From assembly GCA_002633005.1 (NCBI GenBank), contig NMRA01000312.1, forward strand, positions 329,850 through 393,849: a stretch of DNA of 64,000 nucleotides, given 5' to 3'. A program made the translations under genes and the position numbers. This document shows positions 8,706 through 59,785 of this stretch, piece after piece (the stretch's first letter is position 1; every line of letters starts with the position of its first letter). The notes beneath the pieces are model-generated. The model did not search any database and was not told where the DNA came from. It saw nothing but the letters and a program-made list of their open reading frames with translations. The stretch comes from Phoronis australis. Its lineage: Eukaryota; Animalia; Phoronida.

Positions 8706-10106
8706 CAATAGGCCAAGAAATTTTAAACATGATGTTAAAAACATGAATCTTGAAGACCGCTTTCAGTCGTGAGAAATAAAAGACCATTTCCACTAATATG
8801 TGGCAGGCAAATTTTGATAGAACATCCCTTTCATAACTGGAAGCATTTTTTAGCCTACCTGCATGTCAACGCCGAGAATGGTCTGGTGTAGATAGAAATT
8901 GTTTTCTATTCTAGAATGTAAATTTTTGACATATCTTGTTCAGTCGAGTAACCTGCAGGGATATTCCTGACCAGGTTTGAACCTGTGCCCTTAGGGTGCA
9001 CCTGATGATAAAAGTGCTTTTTTTCAAAAAGTTGTGCCTAGCAGACTTTGTCTAATTAAAGTGGTAACATATAGAACAGAAACCCCGAGGGCAATCGAAA
9101 TAAGAACTGTTATCAGACTGGCTGTAAGTTTACTTGAACCTTGCATTTTTGGAAGATGCGCTTGGGGGAGAACTGTTGCAATGTACTTGGGCCTTTTTAT
9201 TTTTTTGTGCGCTAATGGTACAATGGCACAGTCTAGGAATATCCCTGAACCTGGTATGTACAATAATTTGTGTTTTAAGTCATGTCCGCACTAGGAATAA
9301 CCCTATAAAAACTTGACCCCGTTCAATCTAGCCTCAACACTGCACACTCTAAACCCTAAACCCTGAGATAAATATGGCGCAAAAATGATTAGACACCCTA
9401 TGAGTATATTTGGTAACTGAGCAAGTTCACATCTGGCAATATACTGCATTGTCTGTAGATGTGTCCACACTACAATGTGTGCAGGAGCAAGCTACCATAC
9501 GAGATACCCTACCGTAATATTGAATGGTATAATTCAAAAACACCAATGTTAAACTCATATATCTCCTGAAAGCTGAGGCCAGAAAACAATCATTAACATT
9601 TTTGTGTGTATTTAGTATTTACCGGAAATTCATAAGAGGGTAACTAAATCTGTTCTCCCTTAGGAAACTGCAAATTGACCTTCAAAAGACACCACTAAAC
9701 TAACCGTGAAAGGTGAATGCGATGATTACCCTACGATTCTTGCAGAAAATAACCTCAACCATAAAACACATGAAGGGTCATCTATTCCAGTAACTCACAT
9801 GCTCTTTCCAAGTTTTATTCAGATGAACGATATTTTTAGCTTCCAGTAAACAAAACCTTCTTATGACACAGATGAAATAGCAAATGTTCATTAATACATT
9901 TTTGAAGAGCCAAACATCTGAAACCACTGACAGCCACTGAAAGTTTTTTTAAGGAAAAAATACATTCCCTGAAGATACACAACCAAGCTAAATTTCATCA
10001 AGCTTGGTCAAGTGTACTACTTGAATGTTTCTTATTTCATTTTTTCTCTTAGCTTGAACTTTCTTTCTCACTAACCATCACACATATAGCTTGAAAAGAA
10101 TAATTA

Positions 10107-10260
10107 CCATACTCATCCCGGTTATCGCCCATGCTCGGCTTACCGCCCACCCCATTTTTTAGATTCCCAATTTAAGCGCCCTGGGCGGTAGGTAGTACTC
10201 CGCCCCTCAGGCGATAATTCTCCAAAATCCACTGGGGCTCTAGATAACGGGGGATAATGA
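10107..10260. mobile_element. Degenerate small MITE (Tc1/pogo-like, taagcgccc family); related fragments at ~5950-6060, ~17540 and ~28486-28530
   Basis: Imperfect inverted ends (catcccggttatc / gataacggggat) and shared taagcgccc/gggcgctta motifs. Confidence 0.4.
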
Positions 10261-13053
10261 CTTCGCCATGTAATAATCTATATTTATCTTGAGTTTGCAA
10301 AAAAAGAATGGAAAATGTAAAAAATATAATTTTGAGTTTTATTTTGAGCACAAAGATTAGACCTCGGGTCCTGCTCACTCACATGACCACAGAGCCAATG
10401 TAGCAAACTCAGTGTGTCTAGTACAGGCTAGCAAGGTTGAGCTAGTATGGAACCTTGAATGGAGATGGCTCAAAAAGCTCAAATATTGGCCAGCATTGAA
10501 TAAGGTTGCCTAGTTTTCAGCTTGATTACTCCTGCCAGTGAGGATTAATCATGCTTGATGAATTTAAGGTTGTGGAGCAGCATGGTTTTTGCCTGTTTTC
10601 AGTGTTGAAATCTTTTCAGAACCTCTTCTAAGAGGACTCTTGAGTATTTAGCAGCCGACCAGTCTCATCCAATATACAGCACAACATTAAGGTCAACTTT
10701 AATGAGATTGTTGTAAGAGTAACTTCTTAACCTCGAAGGGATTTTTTTTTCGAAACCAATATGGCAGCTACCCTAGTGTAGCAAACACTAAGTTGAAAAG
10801 ATTTCCTTTGACAGGCAGAGTTTAAGTGGAGAAAATTAATTTTCCATTAACCACTCTATAAGCTGATAAAAAAACAAAGTTATATCCAACATAGGGTAGT
10901 AGAGGTGAAAACTACATAGAGCTATAAACTTTAAGACCCGCTTAGACTACCAGCAGCAGAAGATAATTTCATTAAAATTCCACAAGCAGGCCAACCCAAA
11001 CACTAAAAGTTTGCCATCTCATTGCCATGGCAACTATTAGTAACTGGCAATATAAAGAGAATTGGGAGATGGGGCAGTTCAATGCTCTTTTCAGCAGACC
11101 TGTTCATGTTCAAGCAGAGATGTTCATTTTCAAGCAACTTGTTCATGTTCAAGCAACGTGGTCATGCATGGAGTAGACATGTTAACATTTTAATGATGTT
11201 TTTAACAGAATAGTTGCTAGATTGCTTTCTGACACGTTTTGCTTGAACAGAAAATGCACTCCCTAGGTCACTAACTAGAAATGGCTACAGATGCATGGTG
11301 TGCAATTTGGACTGGCAAAACTAGCATAAAAACTTAATGGGGTTAATTGACACAATCTTAGAAACATAAATTAAAAAACCTTTCGTAAAACTTTGAACTG
11401 GTTTCTTTTGAAGAGAATTAATTTTTACACTGATTATCAATTGTTGGAGTCCGGTGACACGGTATGCTGCCAAGTGCCCTATCCATAATGGTGTAAGCAA
11501 AGAGCCCTCCTTGGAGGTAACTTAATAGGACTTCTCTGATCACTGCTTACCTTGGGGCAAACCAAAATGAATACTCAATTACTCGTCACTTGACTAGACA
11601 ATTAATTTCAAGATGTCCACATTCATAATTGCTTCTGCCTTAAAGCAACTTTATGCTGTATCATATCCCTTCTACACGTTGAAGTTATCAGTAAAATATT
11701 GAGACTGAAATATTGGAAAAGGTTAGAATTGATTGGCCAATTTAAAATATTTTGTGCAAAACCCAGAACATAACTTAACACCATCTGTGATGAACCTTAG
11801 TTTAAAACAGCACAAAGGCAGTTTTTGTTTTGAGATCTAGCATTTTGAATATCATGCCACTTCCTAGTATATCATTGAAAATCATTGTTATTTAGGGTTT
11901 ACATGTCGTTTGATCTGACAACTGATCACATGTTCACTCTGCCAAATGAAAAAAACACATGTGAAGGCTGCTTTGCTATTGTCCTCCCCAAGTCTAGTTC
12001 TGCCTCCTTCAGCTCGCATGATTTGTGATTAGGTTTTGTTAGCTCAGGGTGATCACACATGGTTGGATAGAATATTATCAGCAGTCTTGCAAATTAATGC
12101 AAGCTAATTACTTATAGGACGACTGATAGGACCCTCAGAGAATGTTCATTTCAATCCACAGGTCTGACTTCTGGTAAGACATATCCTAACAGCCTTCTCA
12201 TACAAATTCCACAATTAGTGAATGTAGTGTTTCACTTTTTCAAAAAGTTTACACTTTTTAACACAAACCGACACCAAAGATACTAATAAATACAGATAAA
12301 TTAAGCATGACTCTTCAAATATCAGGAAAAGAAATCAGACCTTCCCATGCTGTTAGGATTTGACGGCACTGATGCTACGCTAAACTCCACTGTATTTAAT
12401 TGTTAGATAGAGAAAATACGGAGAAATGACGTAAGCAGTACAAGAAGAGAACATGTTCAGGAAATCTGAGAGTGTGAGAAAGGTTACCAGCCATGGGCAG
12501 CCATTAATAAAGTACATGGTGTGCAGCCCTGCAGGTTATCAGGGTGTGAGCATTAATTAGCAGCAGACGTCCAAACAGACTGGGATTCTGGAAAGACACT
12601 AATCAATCCAGCCAGACACAAACATACACCCACAGCCAGCAAGATTATTTGTATTGAATTCAGTTCAAAAAGCGAATGAACAGATTCTGACTTAGTGAGG
12701 CACGTGCGGGAAACAAACTCTGCTTTCAAAAGCAATTACTTTTATTTTGTACAGTTAGCTTTAGGTTTGTAACTCCGTGATCACGTTTTACTTTGCATGT
12801 TCTAATCAGCAAAGATCTCCACTTAAGCACACATGCACAAGCAGATGGCAACATACAACATGCAACAGTTACACACAAAATACATGTCTGCCAATTAGAC
12901 ATCGTCTGATTAGGACAGGGCAGCATTCATAAGCCAAGTTTCTTAACCCCACAAAATCACACCGAGCAAACGGGCAAATGTATGCTTGAGACCTTACTAG
13001 TATAACCTTGCAAAATGGCATCCACGAATTGGTCAGCATGGTTGAAATGATGT

Positions 13054-13633: not shown

Positions 13634-14110
13634 CTGTGCTATGAATGGTGATCAGCTGGGGAGATACCTTAGACTTTCGCAGGAGTAGTGGCGAGCCATG
13701 GGGACTAGCCTGTAAGCTCTGCCACTTGGCCTTAGGGGTGTGGGGTGAGTGGGGAGGGGTGGAGTTAGCCTGGCCCACCGGGGCACTCTTCCGATTAGTC
13801 GCCAAAGAAGGGGACTGGCGGGGTGAGTTAGGAGACGCCGCCACCGGAACAGGGGTAGCTTGGGTGGCTTCAGAAGACTTAGATGTGTCTGCAGGAACCG
13901 AAACCATCAGGGAACCATCAATGAGGGGAGGACTACAGGTTAGGTGCTCATCAGACCGTGACCGTGCCAGCTGATTTAGGTCATCACCATCTTTAGATTT
14001 ACCCCATGACTTCCGCTTTAGACTGTCTTTGCGCGTGTGCAGGATGTCACGCACACGGCCCCAGGCCTTGCGACCCGTTTTCTTGCTGTCGATATGCAGT
14101 GAGGTGGTGC
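13634..14110 (-). CDS. Gene A coding exon 2 (KAWGRVRDILHTRKDSLKRK, followed by an S/P-rich region)
   Basis: ttttcacag acceptor, G|gtaaat donor, 477 nt, phase 1-1; within ORF 13602-14162. Confidence 0.85.
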
Positions 14111-14588
14111 CTGTGAAAAAGTGCTGTGAGTGACAACAAGAAACGATACCTGTGGATTTCAAAAGAAACGGAAGAAATCATGCAGTGAAAAATCAGCTGA
14201 TTATAGTCAGAGAAATGCTGCAGAACCACCAGTGTTGAAATTAAGTTCCTTATCAAAAATCAGAAAGCTGCTGGCAGCACATCAGGGCTGCGTTCCACGA
14301 ACTTCCATCTACGAAACACTTTCTACGAGAAATATTGTCTTACAGAACAGAAGCAATGTGTTCACCTACAGTATGCTTCCATTACAAAACATTACAGCCT
14401 CGCCAAGCAATCATTTTTGGGGTGGCCATTTTGTTACTTAGTGCATGCTACGTAGTAAGGTCTGAGCTTACTCATACAACACAAGTAAGCCTTTCACCCG
14501 TGTAATCGCACCATTGATTTTACACAGAGCTGGCATTTGGAACGTAACCCTGATAAGCATTTGAAAGATGTTTTGGTTGTGAAGCATC

Positions 14589-16392
14589 AACAAGAGCAAC
14601 GCAGAGCGTTGAAATGCACCCACGAATTCATCGCAAATGGTGTGCTCTTAGGGTTGTTTATTTGTGTCATAAAAATGGCCACTAGATGGCGCAAAAACGT
14701 ACAATCCATCCGAAAATGGGAACATGTCTATAGCTTCTTTACTATGAAGCTATTCACCAAATTTCATAGACATCTGTCACGGAACTTCAGAGAAACAAAG
14801 GAAAACATAATAAAATTAAATTACCACTAGGGGGCACAGTGTTCATGAAAGTAGTCCTTGTCTGTTGCTAGCTTCATATAAATACACTTACTTAAAATTT
14901 AATAAAGATCCAGCAGTAGGTTTAGGAGATGCTGCTATGGGCGTAAAACAAAACAAAACTGCCACCAGGAGGTGCCACAATAGTCAAGGTCGTCATCGTC
15001 AACCATCCTCTTCACACAGAGAACATAAACACCAAGTTTCAAAACCATCCTTAGAATGATTTGGTTGATAGAGGTGTGGACGCCAAAAAGCAGACTCGAA
15101 AACAGCAAAAATGGCCACTAGGCAGCGCAAAATACCTCGATTCCATCCAACAATGGGAGGATAGCGTCATCTCACCAATAGATGTCTGTATTCAAAATTT
15201 TATGTTGAGTACCCTCGAAGATAGAAAAGTAAACGTAAAATCTAAAATTGCCACCATGGGGCACACCAGTAGTCAGATCCATCAGAAAGTCATCGTTGTT
15301 CCTTGTCAACATCATATAAATAGTTTTTAAATTTAGTAAAGATCCTGCAACGGTTTAAGTGATACAGCAATGGGCGCAAAAAAAACGAAACTGTCACTAG
15401 GAGGCGCCACAGTTGTTGAAGTCATTGGAAAATCACCGTCAGCCATCCATTTCATAGAAAAAACATTCATGCCAATTTTCACAATCATGAAAGTGATTTG
15501 GTTGAGGGGTGGACGCCAAAAAACACACTCGAAAACAGTAAAAATGACCACTAGGTGGCACAAACTAAGTCGAATCCATCTGAAAATGAAAAGATAGCGT
15601 CACCACACTAACAGAAGCCTGTACCCCAAATTTTTTGAAAATACATTGAGAACCTTTGAAGAAACAGAGGTTAACGTAAAAAACTAACACTGCCACCAGG
15701 GGGCACACCAGTGGTCAAATCCGTCCGAAAGTAGTCGTCGTCCTTTGTCAACATCATACAAATGCACTTGCTAAATTTAGTAAAGATCCTACAGACGGTT
15801 TAGGAGATGCAGCCATAGGCGCATAAAAAACAAAGCTGCCACCAGGAGGCGCCTCAGTCGTCGAAATCATCGGAAAATCATCGTCAGCCGTCCTCTTCAT
15901 AGTAAGAACATACATGCCAATTTCCACAATCATCCTTAGAGCGGTTTGGTTGATAGAGTGGTGGACGCCTAAAAACAGACTCGAAAACAGTAAAAATGGC
16001 CACTAGGTGGCGCAAATTACGTCGAATCTACACGAAAACGAAAGGATAGCGTCATCTCACTAATAGATGCCTACATGCCAAATTTTATGAAAATACACTG
16101 AAGACCTTTGAAGATATTGATTAAGCGTAAAAAACTAAAATTGTCACTAGGGGGCACGCCGGTGGTCGGATCCGTCCAAAAGTTCACTCATGCCATCCCA
16201 TCCATGAAAGGAACAAATGTGCAAAATTTCATGAACATAGGTCAAACGGTTTTGGAGTTAGAGCAGTGGACGCCGGATGCCGGACGGACGCCGGACGGAC
16301 GCCGCCTGGACGGACAGACGCCGCCCGAGCGGATGGACGAACAGAGATGACGGCATAATGCGTCCACATATAAATTTGTGGGCAAATAAAAA
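14589..16392 (-). mobile_element. Helentron-associated non-autonomous element (DINE-1/HINE-like) with an internal tandem array of ~145-bp monomers in ~440-bp trimers
   Basis: Minus-strand order: T-run, subTIR plus partial IR (tgcccacaaatttatatgtggacgca), GTCY microsatellite (16268-16340), tandem repeats, subTIR gtgggtgcat, stem-loop CAACGC/GCGTTG, terminal CTCTTGTT; no TSD. Confidence 0.8.
14679..16157 (+). promoter_or_regulatory. Array of 11 co-oriented CTCF-consensus motifs (binding unproven)
   Basis: Motifs of the form [C/T]CAC[C/T]AG[A/G]NGG[C/T][A/G]C, some with 1-2 mismatches, start at 14679, 14824, 14962, 15115, 15251, 15394, 15548, 15693, 15839, 16000 and 16144. Confidence 0.65.
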
Positions 16393-16716
16393 ATTGACGG
16401 ACTTCTTTGAAACCACTGGAGTCATTAGGGAATGAATCAAGAAAATTAAGTCCTCAGACCAGAGTTTTGGCAGCTACTAAGAATATGACAGTAAACAAAT
16501 TAATAAAACGATACAAAAAACAAAAATTGGTTAATTGCGTAACCAAGAAAGATTCACAACATTACGAAACCTCAGTGAAATGTGCCATTTCCACTGTAGA
16601 ACATGATCAAATTGGCGACTGGTCCTTCGTTTTGGCCCCTAAGGTCTAACAATTACTGCAAGATACAGTGTATTCTGCCACTTTTCAACCCTTTCTCATG
16701 CCCACCACAAGCCAGA

Positions 16717-16783
16717 CACTAAGACCTCAGGCACTAAGACCTCAGGCACTAAGACCTCAGGCACTAAGACCTCAGGCACTAAG
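16717..16783. repeat. Minisatellite, 15-bp unit x ~4.5
   Basis: cactaagacctcagg repeated. Confidence 0.9.
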
Positions 16784-18962
16784 GCTCTGACACAGCTTGC
16801 TAGTTCATCCTCTCCTGCAGTAGTCAAGAAATTGAAAGTGAGAGTTCTCCTGTGTTACCATGTAATTATGCCATAAGATGATGGAATTTTATCAGGAACA
16901 TGGATACTGACAACAAATTAACACTGGTAGTATGAACACAATTCACATCAAATACCCATGATGTCCCGTAATTTCTATGCATGGATTCCCCTCTTATTGG
17001 AAGAAACAAAACCCTCAGCATGAACGTTTTTTTGCATTAATTAAACCAAGCCCAGTGAACAGTTCAGTCAAGTGATATTTCAAAGTACAGCAAGCACTCG
17101 ATTGCAATTATGGATGTCAGAAAGGCAATCAGAGCAGAAGTTATCTTAAGAAGGTCATTCAGTGCTGTTTGAAGAAGGCACTCCAGGGATTTTTTTCTAA
17201 TTAGAAGCGTTTGCACTCCTCTAAAATAAAACATGCAGGCAAATACAAGAAACTACTGTAATAATTGTCCCCACAGTAATTCATCAAGAGCAATCTCGAT
17301 GCACGAGTCAACACAGGACACATATTTTTCATCCATAGAATTTTTCAAATGTTTTCCCACTAAGATCAATGCTTTGTTCAAATTTGGTCAGGGGATGAAG
17401 TAAGCAGCTCCACATCACAGTAAATAGGTGGATTTAACAATGAAGCCCCCTTGCCTACTGAAATTTTCCATAGTTAAGCCCACCGGCATGTATTCAGCAA
17501 ATGAAAATTTTCAGGCATTTTAGTAACACTAAATAAATGCCCGGGCGTTTATTTGAAAAAGGGAGGGGTGTAATCTTAAAGTCATAGTTTTGGTTACGCA
17601 AATGCCAGCATGGACTGAATACACTTGGCCTAGATTAAGAGGTTTCTTGACTGTGTTTTTAAATTATTATTTTAAATATTAAACGCATAGTTTGCCCACA
17701 CTTTCTTTGATTTTGTAAATGACAATTGCTCTACAAAACTGAATTTGAGACTAAAAGTCGAAGCTGAGTTGGCTTTTAAGAGTAAATTTTCTGAATAGAC
17801 ACTTGACGCCAGAAGATGTAATACCAAATAAACCCCCATGGATGTTTATTCGGCATAATTTTCTGAATGAATGCCCATTGGCATTTCATCAGGTGGAAAA
17901 TCCTGGTAGCTAGGTACAGAGGGAACGCTCACTTCTGGTGTCCATCGAAGTTATCAGCAGGGGTCACTGCTGTGACAATGGTGAAGGTCATATTACGCCA
18001 CCTTGTGGTAACATCCATGACAATAGCATCATCTAGCGAAAACTCCAACGAAACTAATGGGAGTGTTCAAGTTAACTTGACAATTTATGTGGATGCTTCA
18101 CTAGTCCTCAATTTAAATTGATGTGAAAATGCCTTTAGACTTCCCTTTTTCTATGACTAGCTCGAAATTAAGATTGATATAGAGAACTTTAATTCAATCC
18201 ACTGAAAGAAGAAATAGACAAGGCCAGGGAGCCTAAATTTCAGAAAGTTGGTTTTTAGTTTTTTTTTTACTTTTCACAGCTTTCCCTTTTTCTATTGCTA
18301 GGTCAGAGTTAAGACCAACACGAAGAGAATTTTAATTCAACCTACTATTAAAATACCACACAGCAATTTCTTTTAACGAAATACAGACAAGACCACAAGA
18401 CCTAAACTTCAGAAAGCTTTTTCCTCATCTTTTTTTTCAAGTGTTCAAAGATGACAGGAAGAACTGCAGGATATGGTTATGCAACAATGTCTACCGGTAC
18501 TTAAATGGCTGCTTAAAACTGGCAGTGGTAATTAAAAATTAGGCCAACAGGTAAAACAGTTTTCTAAGCGGCTATAAACCAGCCTTATTTTCTGAAAGTA
18601 GAAAGCCTGGTAAGTTTGATTTTTGATTTTTTACCAATCTGCCAAAAAACTGGGTCATGTAACTGTGTCTTTTTAGTAAAATCTAATGAAAAATGAAGGT
18701 ATATTGACAGCAAAACAATGATATAATTAATAAATACTGCAATATCATCCAATTTCATTTGATATAAATATTCCAAGATTCAATCTCCAAAATGCTGTTG
18801 TAGTTTTCTAAATTATCATTTCGTTTTTGCTATAGACAAGCTTTAAATTTTTTCAAGAAAATCGTAAAAGCCATACATTTGATAGCTGCATGCAAAAGTG
18901 CAACATTTTACAAACAATTCAAAAAGCCATTATGGAGAACAGTGCATAGAGCATAGTACCAG

Positions 18963-19686: not shown

Positions 19687-20842
19687 CTTGTTCTAGGTTC
19701 ATATCCATGACAAGCTGTTCCCCTTCACTAGGTGGTGCTGAAAGACCTGTTGGCGGTGACACTGCCGTTGGTGATGTCTTGCTCGCCGACAAGTCCATCA
19801 GGTACACTTCTTGTTTCTCAATACTTTCATCGCTGCTCATGTTCGACTCCTTCACCCACTCCGGAGGCCCCATCCAAACGCCGAAATAGGGGTCTTCATC
19901 AACTATTGCTGACAAATCGACCGTCTTCGATCGTTTGCGGTTATCCTTTGGTGGTTCGTCGATTGCGTCCACAGACTCCATCTTGTTTGGTGAAAATACT
20001 TTCTTCATGTGATCCCACTTGGTAAACTTTTTTAGTCTTGCTTTGGCTTCCACAAGTTTCTGTTTGTCAATGAGGCGGTTGACGCCATGTTTTTTGTAAT
20101 CTAATATTCCAGTGAATTCTGACGAATCCGACGTGTAGATGGAAGCACTAAGAACATCAATCGAGTCCATCGATTGACTACGCTTGCGGCTAATTCCCAT
20201 CGCCGTCTCTTCAGTGGACTTATCAGGCGACGGCAAATCAGCACTGGTATCGAAATCCAGACCAGACAGCCTGCCATGTTTTGCTCCGGGTTTTCTAGCG
20301 TCTTTAGCTTCGTCTTTATTGCGACCAGCTTCTAAGTGTTCTTTAGAGTGGATTCCATGTTTTATTGCTGGCCACGTACCACCCTTATCCACTTCCATAT
20401 CAAAGGAGGCGAGATCAAATTCCCCACTGAGATTCAGCAACTCAAACCGAGCCTTCATCAATGACTTGGTATCCTCCAAATACGTACATCGTTTCTTCAA
20501 CCGCGTGTTTTCGTCTCTCAACTGCGCCAACTGTTCCATCAGCCGACACAAGTTGTCCAGGTGGTCCAGACCGACGCTAACACGGTTTGGGTTCGGACTC
20601 ATGCTGAGTGACCTTGCTGGCGGAAAGTGGGGGCTACGTGGTGTTGGCGGATGCTGACAAAGATGGTGGAACGCTTTCTCTGTCTCCTCGAAGTTGCTCA
20701 TTACTAAACTTTGACATCGTTTCTCCGGCTCATCATTGACTATTGCGATAGTTAGCGTTGGTCGTGAGGTCAGTGGCTTCTTTTGTATGGCCGAGTCAAT
20801 TGGTTCAGTCGTATTTTCTGTCATCACTTTCACACTGGTCAT
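19687..20842 (-). CDS. Gene A first coding exon (MTSVKVMTE...GLDHLDNLCRLMEQLAQLRDENTRLKKRCTYLE...LEQ)
   Basis: 392-aa ORF; the acceptor ttttattttgcag places the exon start at 20885, with an in-frame TAA just before the ATG at 20842; G|gtgagt donor at 19686, phase 1 matches the next exon; short coiled-coil. Confidence 0.85.
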
Positions 20843-23892: not shown

Positions 23893-24913
23893 CATAAAGA
23901 GAGAAACTAACTATGAGATAACTTGTAAATTATTCATAGTGCAGACTATGAATCAAGACACCATAACTCCCAATTACTTGGTTCTGATCTGATTTTTATT
24001 CAAAAAAACGGCACAACGATTAGGAATTCTCTAACAGAAACTGGCTCAAGCCATGTCACATTTGTTTCCTTTCGATTTAAAGACCAGAGCCCACAACATT
24101 TTTTGGCATATTACATCAGAGGTTAACAATAAAACTCTGTGCAGTTTTAAGTTAACGTTCACCAAATTATATGAATCAGTTCTACCTGCAAATAGTTGTT
24201 AAAAGTGGAAATGAAAATGTTTGCCAAAAGAGTTACACAGCTACCTTTCATGTGGCTTTATACAAAAATCACAACTTCATCACCAAATGTAGGCAGGTGC
24301 AGATTATCTTTTATCCCATACGCGTTGAATCTGTCGAGGGAAATACCGCCATGTAATAAAGTTTTCCGTATTCACCTCCCGCACTACTTCAACAGTGACC
24401 TCTGACATGGAAAGTTCAAAAGGTAGGTCAATATCTACTCGACGTCTTCAGCTGGTTCGATCATCAAACTTTCCGAATATAGTTTAAAGTAATACAGTTG
24501 CAGCAATGTAACTTACACTCCACAGGCAACCAGGCCCTAAACGTAAAATCTGGAACAAAACTGTTAATTATAAGACACTTATGTCTCACGGTTTTCAATT
24601 TCTGAATACTATATCGTCTGCAACTCAGGCGCAGATTCCCAGGAAACTAAAATATCAAATATTGTTGTTTTTTAACCAATTCCACGAGATGTTACAAGTT
24701 CACTGCACAGTTGCCGTTGTTTTCATTTGTTACGTTTTTTCAAGAAATAAATCGTTGCTTTTAATACTGTTTCTTTTACAAGAGAAAACTTGCAACCTAA
24801 CGCGTAGGTACATACATATAGGGTGTGATCCGCCATATGAACAGTCTGAGTGAAGTATTTGAAAAATCTGCAGAAAAAATGTAAGAAACTTAGGAATTCG
24901 AAGCGCATGGGAT

Positions 24914-25035
24914 AAATACAAAACGTACCTCGATTGATGTACATGAAGTAATATCCCACTCGACCTAATTCCGCAGAATAATGTCTCGTGGTATATTACT
25001 TCATGTATGCCACTCTCGGTACGTATTGTGTATTT
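24914..25035. repeat. Imperfect ~50-bp-arm inverted repeat (possible Crypton-like terminal palindrome)
   Basis: aaatacaaaacgtacc...catgaagtaatat pairs with atattacttcatg...ggtacgtattgtgtattt. Confidence 0.65.
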
Positions 25036-27024
25036 CTTTTAAAGCAGTCATGCACAATGGTCAAAATGACACATGCAAGATCCAAATGACTTTTTCCTTA
25101 TCCAAATTTGCACAAAATAAACAAACTAGATAAACTGTTACAGATTTCAATTGAAGGCAAATATTTGATGATACTGTATTAATTCGTTCAACAAACAATG
25201 AAATCTTATGAGGACACACCATTCAGAAGAAAACTGGGAAAATAGAAATTGCTAACAACTTCTAAATTTCATTAAAATATGATCCGTTTGTCTTTTACAT
25301 GAGCTTTCAACAAAAAATAACTCATAAATTTGTTTAAGAGACATTCCCTCAGCCCCAGAGACTAAATATCAAAAGGGTTCATTTAACTTCGCAGTCTCAA
25401 AATTTGAGATTGCCAGCACATGATACGAGAGGGCCAGTTGCTAGGAGAATGAGCCAACCTAGTTGGAATGGATAGCTCTTTGTTTCTTACTTAGGCAAAA
25501 AAAATTCCACCATGGAATAGAACAGTTCCAGACATTATGTTGTGTGACTGAGAAACCTACCATTGTCTACGAATTTGGGCTTCAGCTGTTAAGCATGGTA
25601 AGACGGAAATTGATAGGCCTTTTAACTGCAAATATATATGGCTCATTCAAACATGGATAATTTGCTAATTTTAAATACCCTCAATTTTGAGTGTAAAATA
25701 CATCCTAATGCCCATCTAATTATTTTTTTCCAAACTGACTCTTTTTAACATTGTTTTGAAAGTTAATTATATGCAAGGAAATCACCACAAATACTTTGAG
25801 AATCTGAACAAAGAACTGGCATAGTTCAGATTACAAATAAATAACTATTACAAGACATACTAGCGAAAACAATAACAGAGAACAGTAAACTGAGAAGTTA
25901 TGATAACAATAGAGAAACAGGCAACAGTACAAAATATTTTGGTAACCTATATAATTGGCAAAAGCCAAGTGACCGAAACTGACATACCCAACATTTTGTG
26001 GTGACTACCAGAGTTATTTTGATCACTTTTGCAAATGTGCTATACATGAATGTATTATAGCATATAGTAGGAGGGTAGCAACAGGCTCTTGTAATCCAAT
26101 TGGTTGAACACACAGCAGCCCTGTCTGGTAACAATTTGAATGTACACTCTCTGAAACGGACACTATGTCTGCCGATCATCTGCAGAACAACAAGAAATAA
26201 TTGCCAAAACTGATGGATATTCAGTTTTGAATCGCTTCTAACGTTGTCGTGAATGCCCACAAAATCTGAAAACATCATTCCGTGGTAGCTACAGAATACA
26301 ACTTAAAGACAGATAAAGCCTTTGTTTTGCGATTATTACCTTTAATGAGAAAAAATATCATCTCACTTGTGGGCAATACTTGTGTCCTAAATTGGTGAGA
26401 TTTTACCATAAGTAACGATTGAGAAGCAGTGGAACAAGCCATGCCATGGACAGTATGCATCCAGCATGGGGTTGTAATGTGAAGACATGCTACGATAGGG
26501 GTCCATGTATGATATGCAGTGAGATGAGGCAGGATTTGCTACCACCATACCTAAGAATCCTACAGAGCAACCCTATGCAATAATTAATGAAAATTCAAGC
26601 ACTGGCCCAGAAGACAAAGCTTCACTCAATCAAAGGTTAGAAACTGCTTGGTTGTACTGTACGCCTACGTGATCAACAGGTAAATCTATTTTATTGGGAA
26701 TCTAAGTACAGAATAACTAATTCAACCTAGGAACCAATATACCATTTTGGTTCCTAGATTAAATCAACAGTTTTTCAATTGTGTTGCCCTGTTGGCTAAA
26801 AGATGTCATGTATTTCTGATCAAATCTGTTAGCCGGTTCCAGCTGTCGCACCGATTAGACCAGCCGCGGTTGTCTGATTCACTGGTTCAGGGATATATCC
26901 AGATTTCAAAACCCTGCTCGCCAGCTGGGCGAGTGAGCCAGAAAATCTACTCGCCCAGTCCGAAATTCAGTCGCCCAGCCATTTGCGTCTGTCACACAAA
27001 CTTGCTGCCTGAGGGTCAATAAAA

Positions 27025-27300
27025 ATCATCGTTAGGTGCCTAAATACCAAATTTTGTGAAAATCCGTTCAGGACTTTTGAACACACAGAGGTAAACGTAA
27101 AAAACTAAAATTGTCACTAGGGGGCACACCGGTAGTCGGATCCGTCAGAAAGTTCGCTCATGCTGTCCCACGTACAAAATTTCATGAACATACATCAAGG
27201 CGTTTTGGAGATAAAGTAGCAGACGCAGGACGGATGCCGGACGGACGGACTGAGACGACGGCATAATGCGTCCATATATAAATGTGTGGGCGCATAAAAA
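27025..27300 (-). mobile_element. Truncated second copy of the DINE-1/HINE-like element with one CTCF-like motif (27114)
   Basis: Closely matches 16060-16392, including tcactagggggcac, the ggac microsatellite and the gcataatgcgtcca...gtgggcgcataaaaa end. Confidence 0.85.
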
Positions 27301-27301
27301 C

Positions 27302-27634
27302 TGAGCAACAACCGATCCGCGTTGTTTTGTCTCCTGCCTACCGAACCCAAACACACTAGGCACAACGTCTGACTTAATACTCAGTCTCTTTTTCTGTCCT
27401 GGCATGAGCCGACATTCGATCGTCAATGAAATCACTGTAGACGAAATTCAGGCCACAGACATGGAGAAGTTTCACGGCCTCATACTTAATTGGTATTACG
27501 GCGTGCTTTTCATTCTTCACTACCGCGAACTACTTCCGAAGCATTGTGTGCTCTCGAGGAAATCAAAAAAACGATATACCTGCTTTCCTCATAGCTTCAT
27601 AGTTCGCACAAGCGGGAACGATACACCACTCCAT
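27302..27634 (-). pseudogene. Degenerate THAP zinc-finger (transposase N-terminus) relic, probably from a Kolobok element ending at 27806
   Basis: Manual translation MEWCIVPACANYEAMRKAGISFF*FPREHTMLRK*FAVV...VCGLNF...(frameshift)RLSIKSDVVPSVF fits the THAP pattern C-x4-C...FP...W...C-x2-HF...AVPTIF; cct|ttaa end at 27804-27810. Confidence 0.7.
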
Positions 27635-35983: not shown

Positions 35984-36465
35984 CTGAACCTAGTCTTGAC
36001 TGTTCACTGTGTGTAATATTCTGAACCCAGTCTTGACTGTTAGCTGTGTGTAATATTCTGAACCCAGTCTTGACTGTTAGCTGTGTGTAATATTCTGAAC
36101 CTAGTCTTGACTGTTAGCTGTGTGTAATATTCTGAACCTAGTCTTGACTGTTCACTGTGTGTAATATTCTGAACCCAGTCTTGACTGTTCACTGTGTGTA
36201 ATATTCTGAACCCAGTCTTGACTGTTCACTGTGTGTAATATTCTGAACACAGTCTTGACTGTTCACTGTGTGTAATATTCTGAACACAGTCTTGACTGTT
36301 CACTGTGTGTAATATTCTGAACCCAGTCTTGACTGTTCACTGTGTGTAATATTCTGAACCCAGTCTTGACTGTTAGCTGTGTGTAATATTCTGAACCTAG
36401 TTTTGACTGTTCACTGTGTGTAATATTCTGAAAACAGTCTTGACTGTTATTGTGTACTATTCTGA
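35984..36465. repeat. Minisatellite, 37-bp unit x ~13
   Basis: ctgaacccagtcttgactgttcactgtgtgtaatatt repeated with few variants. Confidence 0.95.
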
Positions 36466-55380: not shown

Positions 55381-55724
55381 CTGAAAAATTACAACGAGCA
55401 ATAGTTTTAGAGACTAAACTTGTAATTGAATGTAAGACAAACTGTCACCGTCATGCACTGTTATAACTGAGTGCAAGAATTACATTATGCAATGCAAAAT
55501 CGTAGTACCAGGGTGCTCTTTTTGGAAAAGGATAATTTTTCAACAATTGAAGTTTGAAGTTAAACTTGCACCAAAAAATGTCATCAATTTAGGATCCAAG
55601 ATGGCGGACAAGTGAAAAGATGTTTTATTTTCATAAAAGATATATAGTGCAAAATAGATGTTAAATATCTTTTTTGTTCTGTACCAAAGTAACCATCAGA
55701 CAATGCTTTGAGAAGTTGTGTTCA

Positions 55725-56294
55725 GGGCTGTACCAGCAAAATCTGTGTGGGAGGGGGGGGAAGGCAACTGAAATAAAAATTTATGGGTGGTTGCGTTTGA
55801 CTTAAATTCAAAATGGCTGGTGGTCATACTTCAAAAAAAATTTAAATTTACAGGTCGTTGTTGTTTCATTGGGCCATAAATGTTTGATGGTGGGTAATTT
55901 TAGTAAATTTTATAAACAATCTGCACAGAATCAAAAACTGAAACAAAAATGCAACTTGCAAAGAGCTCCGACTTTTTCACTCCCTCCGATCTCCTCATCG
56001 GCATGCCCATAACACCATTTAACCACAGGTTCTCGAATTTCTCGATGGCTAATAACCATATATAAAAAACATATGTTTTCTTAGTAATGAATGACGTTAG
56101 TGGTGATGGAGGAACAGATAAACTCAAGCGCCTGTGCAGTCAACCACAAGAACAAAAAAAAATTACGGGTGGTTGCATTTCAAACTTATAAAAAATTACG
56201 GGTGGTAGGCTGAAGAAATAAATGAAAAATATGGGTGGTGGGTGCGAAAAAAGGTGCCTTCCCCCCTCCCATACAGATTTTACTGGAACAGCCC
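55725..56294. mobile_element. PIF/Harbinger-like MITE, copy 1
   Basis: ~30-bp TIR GGGCTGT[A/T]CCAG[C/T]AAAATCTGT[G/A]TGGGAGGGG; 3-bp TSD TCA. Confidence 0.9.
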
Positions 56295-56468
56295 TCAATC
56301 AGAATAATGTTGAAAGCCTTTGAAAAATGAAAAAAGTAAATTTTGGCAATAAAGTTTGCCCGAAGCTTTACTGTTCAAAACGTTGAACGTTTAATGGGCA
56401 GGTGTTTCTGACTTTACTACAGTAAAATCGGAAAAAATAGCAGAGTTAGAACAACAATACAAAAATAA

Positions 56469-58467: not shown

Positions 58468-58573
58468 CTGTAGGTTAATTGACATCTTTTATTTGTTATG
58501 AGTTCACGCAACACGCTGTACTAGAAAGAAAGTGGCAAAAATTTAGTTGACAATATAGATCTAAATTTCCTTA

Positions 58574-59655
58574 GGGCTGTTCCAGTAAAATCTGTATGGG
58601 AGGGGTGGAAGGCACCTTTTTTTCGCACCCACCACCCATACTTTTCATTTATTTCTTCAGCCTACCACCCGTAATTGTTTATAAGTTTGAAATGCAACCA
58701 CCCGTAATTTTTTTTTTGTTCTTGTGGTTGACTGCACAGGCGCTTGAGTTTATCTGTTCCTCCATCACGCAGGGCTTGGAATGACCAGTGACAAAAAACG
58801 TGGAAACTTTTATGGTCCAAATCACGCGCACTAGCCAGCCTTGAAATGGTCGATGTGAACCCGTCCCCGACAAATATCGGGAGGACTAAAAAAAAAACGT
58901 TACCACCATCAGTAGCATGCGTCTGCGTCCTTTTGGGTCGCCCATCGACTCCCAATCCACACACTTTTGGCTGCAGAGCCGTAGTATTTGTCGCCGCGGT
59001 TTACAGTAACGCGAGACGCCATTGAAAATCCCACCACGCTATCCCAGATGCCCCGGCAATGTTGACAATTTACGTTCCTCCGAAACATAAAGAGCAACTT
59101 CCACTTTTCGAGGTGAACGTCGTCTGCAACGCCGCGGTAAGAAAGGAATTTGCCGCGGAAATTTTATATCAAATCCGATTTTTTTACGCGGAAATATAAT
59201 AAAATGCGCGGAAAGAACATTTGAAAAAAGCGGAAATCGGCGTTTCCGCGGAAAACTCCAAGCCCTGATCACCACTAACGTCATTCATTACTAAGAACAC
59301 ATATGTTTCTTATATATGGTTATTAGCCATCAAGAAATTCGAGCACCTGAGTGTGGTTAACTGGTGTTATGGGCATGTCGATGAGGAGATCGGAGGGAGT
59401 GAAAAAGTCTGAGCATTTTGCAAGTTGCATTTTTGTTTCAGTTTTTGATTTTGTGCGGATAGTTTATAAAATTTACTAAAGTTACCCAGCATCAAACATT
59501 TATGGCCCAATGAAACAACAACGACATGTAAATTTTTATTTTTTTGAAGTACGACCACCAGCCATTTTGAATTTAAATCAAATGCAAACACCCATACATT
59601 TTTATTTCCGTTGCCTTCCCCCTCCCCTCCCACACAGATTTTGCTGGAACAGCCC
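58574..59655. mobile_element. PIF/Harbinger-like MITE, copy 2 (inverted relative to copy 1), carrying a nested insertion
   Basis: Same TIRs, 3-bp TSD TTA; sequence is the reverse complement of 55725-56294 apart from the insert. Confidence 0.9.
58770..59267. mobile_element. Nested hAT-like MITE (CAGGGCTTGGA TIRs)
   Basis: Absent from copy 1 (empty site ctccatcaccactaacg); flanks atcacg/atcacc; repeated cgcggaaa motifs. Confidence 0.85.
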
Positions 59656-59785
59656 TTAAACTTTTGAGCAGAAATAGAAATCTGCACGGCGTACAAATTA
59701 TGTGATCACTTCACCACATCAATGGTGTGTTGCAGTCATGAACCACATTCATATGCTTTAAAACTAAAACCATTGTATTACGTAC

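Follow-up and report, generated by a model that had tools for sequence, protein, structure and literature searches.

A HINE from Phoronis australis carrying a periodic array of co-oriented CTCF-type motifs

The locus described here raises the question of whether a rolling-circle transposon can carry a directional array of sites for the host protein CTCF through a genome and, if so, for whose benefit such an array would be kept. The window, by which we mean the whole stretch of DNA analysed (64,000 nucleotides of Phoronis australis contig NMRA01000312.1, positions 329,850 to 393,849), had been annotated from its letters in a preliminary description with a Helentron/DINE-1-like element at 14589..16392, located in an intron of a gene termed gene A and carrying eleven CTCF motifs on one strand.

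Anatomy, abundance and genomic setting of the element

The Helentron/DINE-1-like identity was borne out, as the terminal anatomy agrees in each point with the published definition of a HINE. Based on its sequence, the element at 14589-16393 is classified as a non-autonomous Helentron (HINE) and a member of a HINE family with the following features:

14589..16393, minus strand: whole HINE copy, 5' end at the right and 3' end at the left, recognised by terminal anatomy, read breakpoints and depth
16388..16393, minus strand: 5' terminal T run (an A run on the plus strand); the other flank carries no matching target-site duplication
16378..16387, minus strand: 5' subterminal inverted repeat (subTIR), with two differences from the version in the second copy
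16358..16367, minus strand: short inverted repeat of the DINE-1 type, pairing with the 5' subTIR 10 bases away
16268..16354, minus strand: degenerate GTCC/GTCY-type microsatellite, preceding the central tandem repeats on the element strand
14625..16260, no strand assigned: central higher-order tandem repeat with monomer types A, B and C of ~145 bp each and a unit of ~440-450 bp
14614..14623, minus strand: 3' subTIR, identical at 9/10 positions to the 5' subTIR of the second copy
14597..14611, minus strand: 3' palindrome with a perfect 6-bp stem and a 3-base loop, 8 bases from the end
27033..27300, minus strand: second, 3'-truncated copy of the same HINE family, in the same orientation, with an intact 5' end, no 3' end and one CTCF-type core at 27114

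The subTIRs, which are paired as in other HINEs and identical at 7/10 positions within the main copy, are 10 bp long and thus slightly shorter than the 11-15 bp of published HINEs, and the position of the 3' palindrome lies within the HINE range of 8-35 bp. The hairpin formed by the 5' subTIR and the short inverted repeat folds in both copies, with -4.5 kcal/mol in the main copy and -5.1 kcal/mol in the second copy, which is absent from the preliminary description. The 3' end terminates in TT and the 5' end in the T run and, because the two flanks are unrelated to each other, the insertion occurred without target-site duplication; reads of other loci likewise run on into T-rich flanks on the element strand. 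Only two stop-to-stop frames, of 113 and 91 amino acids, overlap the element, which appears to be non-coding and is interspersed like other HINEs, and a search of 14000-17000 against Rfam gave no match. A MITE with true terminal inverted repeats, a SINE and a plain satellite were excluded, as the ends consist of subterminal repeats and hairpins and the unit is interspersed.

The ends could be fixed because reads with mixed flanks break there: the three RNA runs have 275-306 such reads each with a break at 14589, 100-161 with one at 14590 (flank agreement 0.38-0.53) and 116-192 with one at 27300. Together with the A run at the right, these breaks place the limits given previously within one base of the actual ends. 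The genome-wide abundance of the family was confirmed by the mixed flanks and by DNA depth. In one DNA run of the same organism, contig depth over the element was, at 92% likeness, ~1,700-7,400 times the single-copy background, rising to as much as 16,000 times at 80%; as summed contig depth is not a copy number, we state the number of copies as roughly thousands only. At 20 of 216 places, the window copy has a letter other than that of the family majority. Two other high-copy repeats lie at 10068-10734 and 24075-25408, with a contig depth of 33,000-65,000 compared to ~50, and a 37-bp minisatellite with 13 copies and 94% matches is found at 35984-36465.

Gene A extends over 20755-1963 on the minus strand, encodes a large uncharacterised coiled-coil protein related to Haliotis rubra XP_046581969 and is expressed in two of the three RNA runs. 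Its alignment with the Haliotis protein consists of four collinear pieces at E < 1e-6 and one weak piece, two of which are the coding exons next to the element:

19979..20755, minus strand: gene A coding exon upstream of the element, 35% identical to residues 126-366 of XP_046581969, covered by RNA
13941..14090, minus strand: gene A coding exon downstream of the element, 48% identical to residues 549-597 of XP_046581969, ~500 bp from the element 3' end, covered by RNA

The intronic position claimed for the element is supported by this homology, because the pieces at 20755-19979 and 14090-13941 flank it with coding sequence on both sides. No splice junction across the element is found among the 15 joints listed of 440, all of which stem from repeats. 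The big exon of gene A was linked to DUF4657/C8orf58-like clusters (0.94), which we regard as a lead only.

The window also contains a cyclin F gene at 63323-52617 on the minus strand, in at least 11 pieces and with ~51% identity to the cyclin F of oysters, its best match. The C-terminal cyclin domain was the sole Pfam domain named at the cut-off among seven window pieces, and the cyclin exon had no match in a word-index search among longer proteins but one in the full HMMER search. In a tree of 19 rows, none of them from a flatworm or a cnidarian, the window gene groups with molluscs and two further proteins (95/93), apart from deuterostomes and Priapulus. CTCF orthologues are described for molluscs, annelids and rotifers and were lost in flatworms (PMC10658182), and CTCF is given as the commonest motif in the open chromatin of an annelid, in a vertebrate-like form (PMC7854359). 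Judged by this clade placement, the host probably belongs to the spiralians and is likely to have a CTCF orthologue. The introns of the cyclin F gene hold inverted duplicated segments with 92-97% identity, at 55721-56298 and 58573-59659.

The CTCF-type array and its retention

Each of the eleven 14-base motifs listed in the preliminary description was present once in the element and on the plus strand. The spacing of 136-161 bp and the presence of one motif per monomer (11/11) were found as described:

14679..16157, plus strand: array of 11 CTCF-type cores in one orientation, with an A tract in front of each
14679, 14824, 14962, 15115, 15251, 15394, 15548, 15693, 15839, 16000 and 16144, plus strand: starts of the CTCF-type cores

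The monomers follow each other in the order ABC ABC ABC AB, and Tandem Repeats Finder reported a period of 452 with 3.0 copies and 77% matches at 14874-16183. The period of ~145 bp is, by comparison with published families, ordinary for HINE repeats and not a feature of CTCF: monomers of 138-181 bp are given for oyster HINEs (PMC7492417) and core repeats of 156 bp for those of a clam (PMC3879986).

For scoring we used a reconstruction of the CTCF matrix JASPAR MA0139.1 rather than the database entry. With this matrix, the scan against shuffles proposed previously was positive, with 12/12 sites at p values from 9e-10 to 3e-6. The element gave 16 matches (13 on the plus strand and 3 on the minus strand, the latter overlapping the same sites). 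Dinucleotide shuffling, repeated 1000 times, left 0.61 matches on average and never more than 6, and p 1e-5 was attained by 17 of 3300 monomers after shuffling. In the 64-kb window, the best 10 of the 49 matches are all sites of the HINE family. An optional second CTCF module upstream, with the motif and spacing that we take it to have, was not found in the columns -17 to -4, which are occupied by the A tract. A convergent pair of CTCF-type sites (17951 on the plus strand and 18011 on the minus strand; 15.7 and 16.6 bits), 60 bp apart, lies in a moderately repeated stretch of the same intron. The eleven cores descend from one monomer and are not independent, i.e. they represent a strong match of single origin and, for this reason, the real evidence lies in their retention.

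The motif had been described as retained in three strongly diverged monomer types. This was supported by a between-type identity of 429/560 (77%) in the motif versus 2162/5200 (42%) elsewhere, a comparison in motif-centred windows that is biased towards the motif, and by an identity within types of 182/210 (87%) versus 1267/1965 (65%). The neighbouring A tract, taken over 14 columns, equals the motif in conservation, and a second conserved block, reaching 0.64, lies 21-38 bases behind it. Measured against the reconstructed matrix, the conservation of the columns tracks their information content (rho 0.59, p 0.008) and the core variants observed are milder than random ones (p 0.04).

The comparison of motif and flank conservation within the family, also proposed previously, gave a divided answer. 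Reads and contigs were aligned to 15650-15890 at 80% likeness and, with the edges dropped, 15660-15875 was kept, which covers two of the eleven motifs. Thirty-five places vary in at least 20% of the records, two of them in the two motifs and both at the C/T position. None of the 20 fixed motif positions varies, compared to 33 of 188 flank positions (p 0.026), but the difference is lost if all 28 motif positions are counted (2/28, p 0.13). A control restricted to G/C positions gave p 0.047, and contig depth falls over one of the two motifs. Among the 40 differences listed, of 551 in a larger family alignment, 22 fall within the element, and motifs account for 4; three of the latter (15123, 15124 and 15394) restore the consensus where the window copy departs from it, and the fourth is the C/T position. 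Because of these alleles, we conclude that the transposing lineage holds stronger motifs than the window copy, which points to selection in this lineage at least as much as at the present locus. In the window copy itself, 5 of 110 fixed core positions have changed compared to 10.5 expected from the divergence of the flanks (p 0.04), which fits selection before insertion but also selection for the host at this locus. These conservation tests are partly dependent on each other and range from p 0.008 to 0.047 across several, with 0.13 if degenerate positions are counted. Taken together, the results show that the CTCF-type motif is selectively kept at the positions that CTCF reads, while the rest of the repeats diverges.

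The motif in other repeats and the transcription of the family

In the supplement on oyster HINE repeats (7,151 arrays in 13 clusters, at most 400 characters per entry), 142 occurrences in total were counted for four 7-base halves of the motif and 3 for six 9-base words, compared to the ~280 or more occurrences that one motif per monomer would yield in even the smallest cluster. As exact words, the CTCF motif is thus absent from the 13 clusters and, because of this absence, the CTCF-type motif is, as judged from these words, not a general transposition signal of HINEs. In one supplement on the oyster satellitome, six words gave one match, which is not a motif.

A scan with two motifs returned 66 loci (1 viral, 51 metagenome and 14 prokaryote-genome loci), of which 19 were read by eye. 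The scans selected for the motif, had no scrambled-motif control and also hit prokaryote repeats, so that the loci are to be taken as leads. Twenty-eight of the 66 have a GC content of at most 50%, and 25 of these 28 are tandem repeats around the motif. The viral locus was rejected as a relative, being a 39-bp repeat within an open frame, and the prokaryote-genome loci, 12 of 14 of which have at least 59% GC, were taken as chance matches in tandem repeats. No close relative of the element was found among the 66 loci: only L005 and L042 matched it in BLAST, over 26 bp at the motif. These two (352-1320 and 382-1057, respectively) belong to an unrelated, HINE-like 146-bp family with a near-perfect CTCF core in each monomer and a long 5' hairpin of -18.9 kcal/mol. 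Further unrelated families with a period of 146-158 bp and one CTCF-type core per unit, but without identified element ends, are represented by L013/L016, L034, L041, L030/L007 and L037. Eight metagenome contigs (L014, L020, L022, L027, L029, L032, L043 and L044) carry a minisatellite of 38-bp units, most of which include a CTCF-type core; L029 has 17 pattern matches, L002 carries a 37-bp version and L019 a 31+161-bp version. The flanks of the motif in these families are unrelated or faintly similar to the window monomers (z at most 3.2 compared to 18-34 within families). In L005 and L029, an end with microsatellite and hairpin is visible, and the strand of the motif relative to this end is the same as in the window. 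The downstream microsatellite of L041 is part of a separate short element and was left out of the orientation count.

RNA of the family was 25-65 times commoner in the sense direction of the element, which is also the direction of the gene A exons, than in antisense (92% likeness; 14070-16737 and 26743-27399), and 42 and 139 times commoner at 80% likeness in the one place checked, compared to a strand ratio of 0.7-1.1 for the neighbouring repeat, all on three samples of one study. Oligo-dT mispriming was excluded as the cause, as the RNA is the U-rich strand. Because the bias was also seen in one run with almost no signal from gene A, and because the reads at the intact 5' end of the second copy enter from many different upstream flanks, it reflects many loci. 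One possibility is that almost every transcribed copy runs in the direction of its host, which would mean either insertion targeted to the displaced strand or purging of oppositely oriented copies, and the motifs would then have a fixed polarity relative to genes. The other is that the element, in addition, drives transcripts of its own. In the oyster assembly, HINEs are reported in both orientations (PMC7492417).

Possible roles of the array and known systems

CTCF probably binds the array. We tentatively favour the explanation, at somewhat below even probability, that the HINE array recruits host CTCF mainly for the benefit of the element, in that it keeps the copies open and unsilenced. An autonomous Helentron would provide the Rep/helicase that moves the element by rolling-circle transposition into T-rich sites. 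An ancestral monomer with one CTCF core would have been multiplied by tandem amplification, and while monomers A, B and C diverged, the core would have been kept by selection acting on those copies that transpose further. With CTCF bound every ~145 bp, no room would be left for a nucleosome between the bound proteins, so that the copy would stay open, shielded from silencing and accessible to the transposase. Effects on the host, such as local insulation, accessibility and polymerase pausing, would be by-products, and these would have a fixed polarity in so far as transcribed copies appear co-oriented with transcripts. The element may thereby take advantage of a protein which is essential to the host and not easily altered by it.

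In the model of a mobile directional insulator, raised in the preliminary description, CTCF on the array would block cohesin loop extrusion from one side, insertions would act as boundaries and some of them would be kept by the host. This role seems doubtful to us. By the vertebrate convention, the motifs point to the element 5' end and to the gene A promoter, and the cores are strong, co-oriented and, in the window copy, less changed than their flanks, but thousands of strong barriers, many of them intronic, would be costly. Moreover, Shi et al. are said to have found in 2023 that loops in Xenopus sperm are Helitron-marked and that their anchors lack CTCF. CTCF orientation is reported to organise human domains, but human boundaries are enriched in divergent clusters, with same-direction clusters being merely the commonest class (PMC7422557). 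Further support comes from the lamprey, in which hAT and LTR elements carry CTCF sites confirmed by ChIP (PMC5504073), and from amphioxus boundaries, which are described as rich in CTCF motifs, with convergent pairs slightly in excess (PMC10013865). Against it, squid boundaries have a CCCTC-like motif but no directionality in one Hi-C study and Drosophila CTCF acts at few loci (PMC10658182), and the motifs of Dimorphilus are mostly single, at promoters and without directional arrangement (PMC7854359). The step from motif to directional loop-extrusion barrier, which builds on vertebrate data, is the weakest one, because CTCF directionality is not established in spiralians. If, on the other hand, the array were a neutral passenger, i.e. 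a CTCF-like word picked up on a single occasion and multiplied through tandem amplification and transposition, CTCF might bind but nothing would select for it. The single origin of the 11 sites, the conserved block behind the motif, the p values of 0.02-0.05 in several tests and the low-variability blocks often seen in HINE monomers (oyster, PMC7492417; clam, PMC3879986) are in line with this explanation. We nevertheless regard it as unlikely, as the monomer types are 42% identical outside the motif, within which the fixed positions are nevertheless kept and variation falls on the degenerate ones, as the family test agrees with retention, and as unrelated repeat families bear the same motif.

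CTCF binding is predicted from sequence, and a different binder, either the Helentron's own Rep/helicase or another host zinc-finger protein with a similar preference, would also account for a retained motif; the fixed orientation of the motif to the element ends in the three families with a visible end is what a transposition signal would show. This is improbable in our view, considering the 13 oyster clusters without the motif, the match of the degenerate positions to those of CTCF in the reconstructed matrix, the termini as published HINE signals (PMC4067079) and an array orientation that is in any case fixed in all oyster HINEs (PMC7492417). Lastly, the array may be promoter-like or mechanical, as an open, A-tract-rich region from which sense transcripts start or which acts as a bendable barrier in the manner of the Helitron-derived PATCs of C. 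elegans, and with CTCF in a secondary role. The sense bias of the RNA agrees with this, as do spiralian CTCF motifs at promoters (PMC7854359), oyster Helitron satellites named as bendable (bioRxiv 10.64898/2026.08.08.743475) and an AA/TT power near 9.8 bp above that of 72 of 74 other window segments, albeit in a periodicity test that is inflated by the tandem copies and has controls on a coarser grid. As the reads that enter the 5' end from mixed upstream flanks are unlike those of an internal promoter, and just two start places are among those listed, one at 15569 with 13 molecules, we consider this highly improbable.

Recruitment of CTCF for the element's own benefit therefore remains our preferred, if tentative, explanation. 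A more far-reaching reading is distinctly unlikely: Helentron-type elements in several invertebrate phyla would have made polarised CTCF arrays independently, and in the present host the family would lie almost always sense to transcription units and form a strand-locked boundary system, with thousands of clusters facing the promoters of host genes and supplying most strong CTCF sites. Outside vertebrates, and above all in the barely studied spiralians (PMC10658182), the present family would be a natural experiment on CTCF directionality, with its thousands of copies, its strong sites in one orientation, of which a copy has up to 11, and its presumably polymorphic insertions. As the family gives the 10 strongest of the 49 matches in the window, what is said about boundaries in such genomes on the basis of motifs may largely concern one transposon.

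The element shares its architecture with HINE/DINE-1 (PMC4067079), Cg_HINE of the Pacific oyster (PMC7492417) and DTC84 and the pearl elements of bivalves (PMC3879986): a 5' subTIR with inverted repeat, a GTCY-type microsatellite, central repeats of ~140-180 bp, a 3' subTIR with palindrome, T-flanked ends without duplication and a high copy number. It differs from known HINEs in that the central repeat is a higher-order unit of three monomers with one CTCF-type core in each; CTCF is not mentioned in the consulted parts of that literature (PMC4067079, PMC7492417, PMC3879986). Rolling-circle spread of repeated sites for one host factor is likewise described for Caenorhabditis Helitrons with heat shock elements, where the factor is HSF-1 and both binding and gene activation were demonstrated, in contrast to the present motif, which is known from its sequence (PMC6927752). 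Helitron minisatellites of C. elegans are described as mechanical barriers (PATCs); these repeats are likewise tied to chromatin barriers and often intronic, but act through DNA mechanics in an animal without CTCF (bioRxiv 10.64898/2026.08.08.743475). Transposons also supply CTCF motifs genome-wide in the case of lamprey hAT-Tip100 #274 and LTR elements and of mammalian retroelements, which are vertebrate, ChIP-confirmed and of the cut-and-paste or retro type, with no tandem array mentioned in the text consulted, whereas the present element is a rolling-circle element of an invertebrate with 11 sites per copy (PMC5504073).

In searches of the open full-text literature, assessed mostly on the level of listed records, a periodic CTCF array in a Helentron or HINE was not encountered. 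Each half of the arrangement is known, namely transposon-borne CTCF sites and Helitron-borne arrays of binding sites, and what appears to be new is their combination. Tandem repeats with many sites for CTCF or its paralogue are found in the DXZ4 and FIRRE macrosatellites and in the SVA repeats bound by BORIS, all of which are mammalian and either fixed loci or a retrotransposon rather than rolling-circle elements. In the gypsy insulator of Drosophila, ~12 tightly packed Su(Hw) sites lie in an LTR retrotransposon and insulation is proven. Like gypsy, the element described here carries clustered sites for an insulator protein in mobile form, but it differs in the protein, in the class of element and in the packing of the sites, which lie ~145 bp apart, and by this comparison it would work at most like a mobile insulator of the gypsy type.
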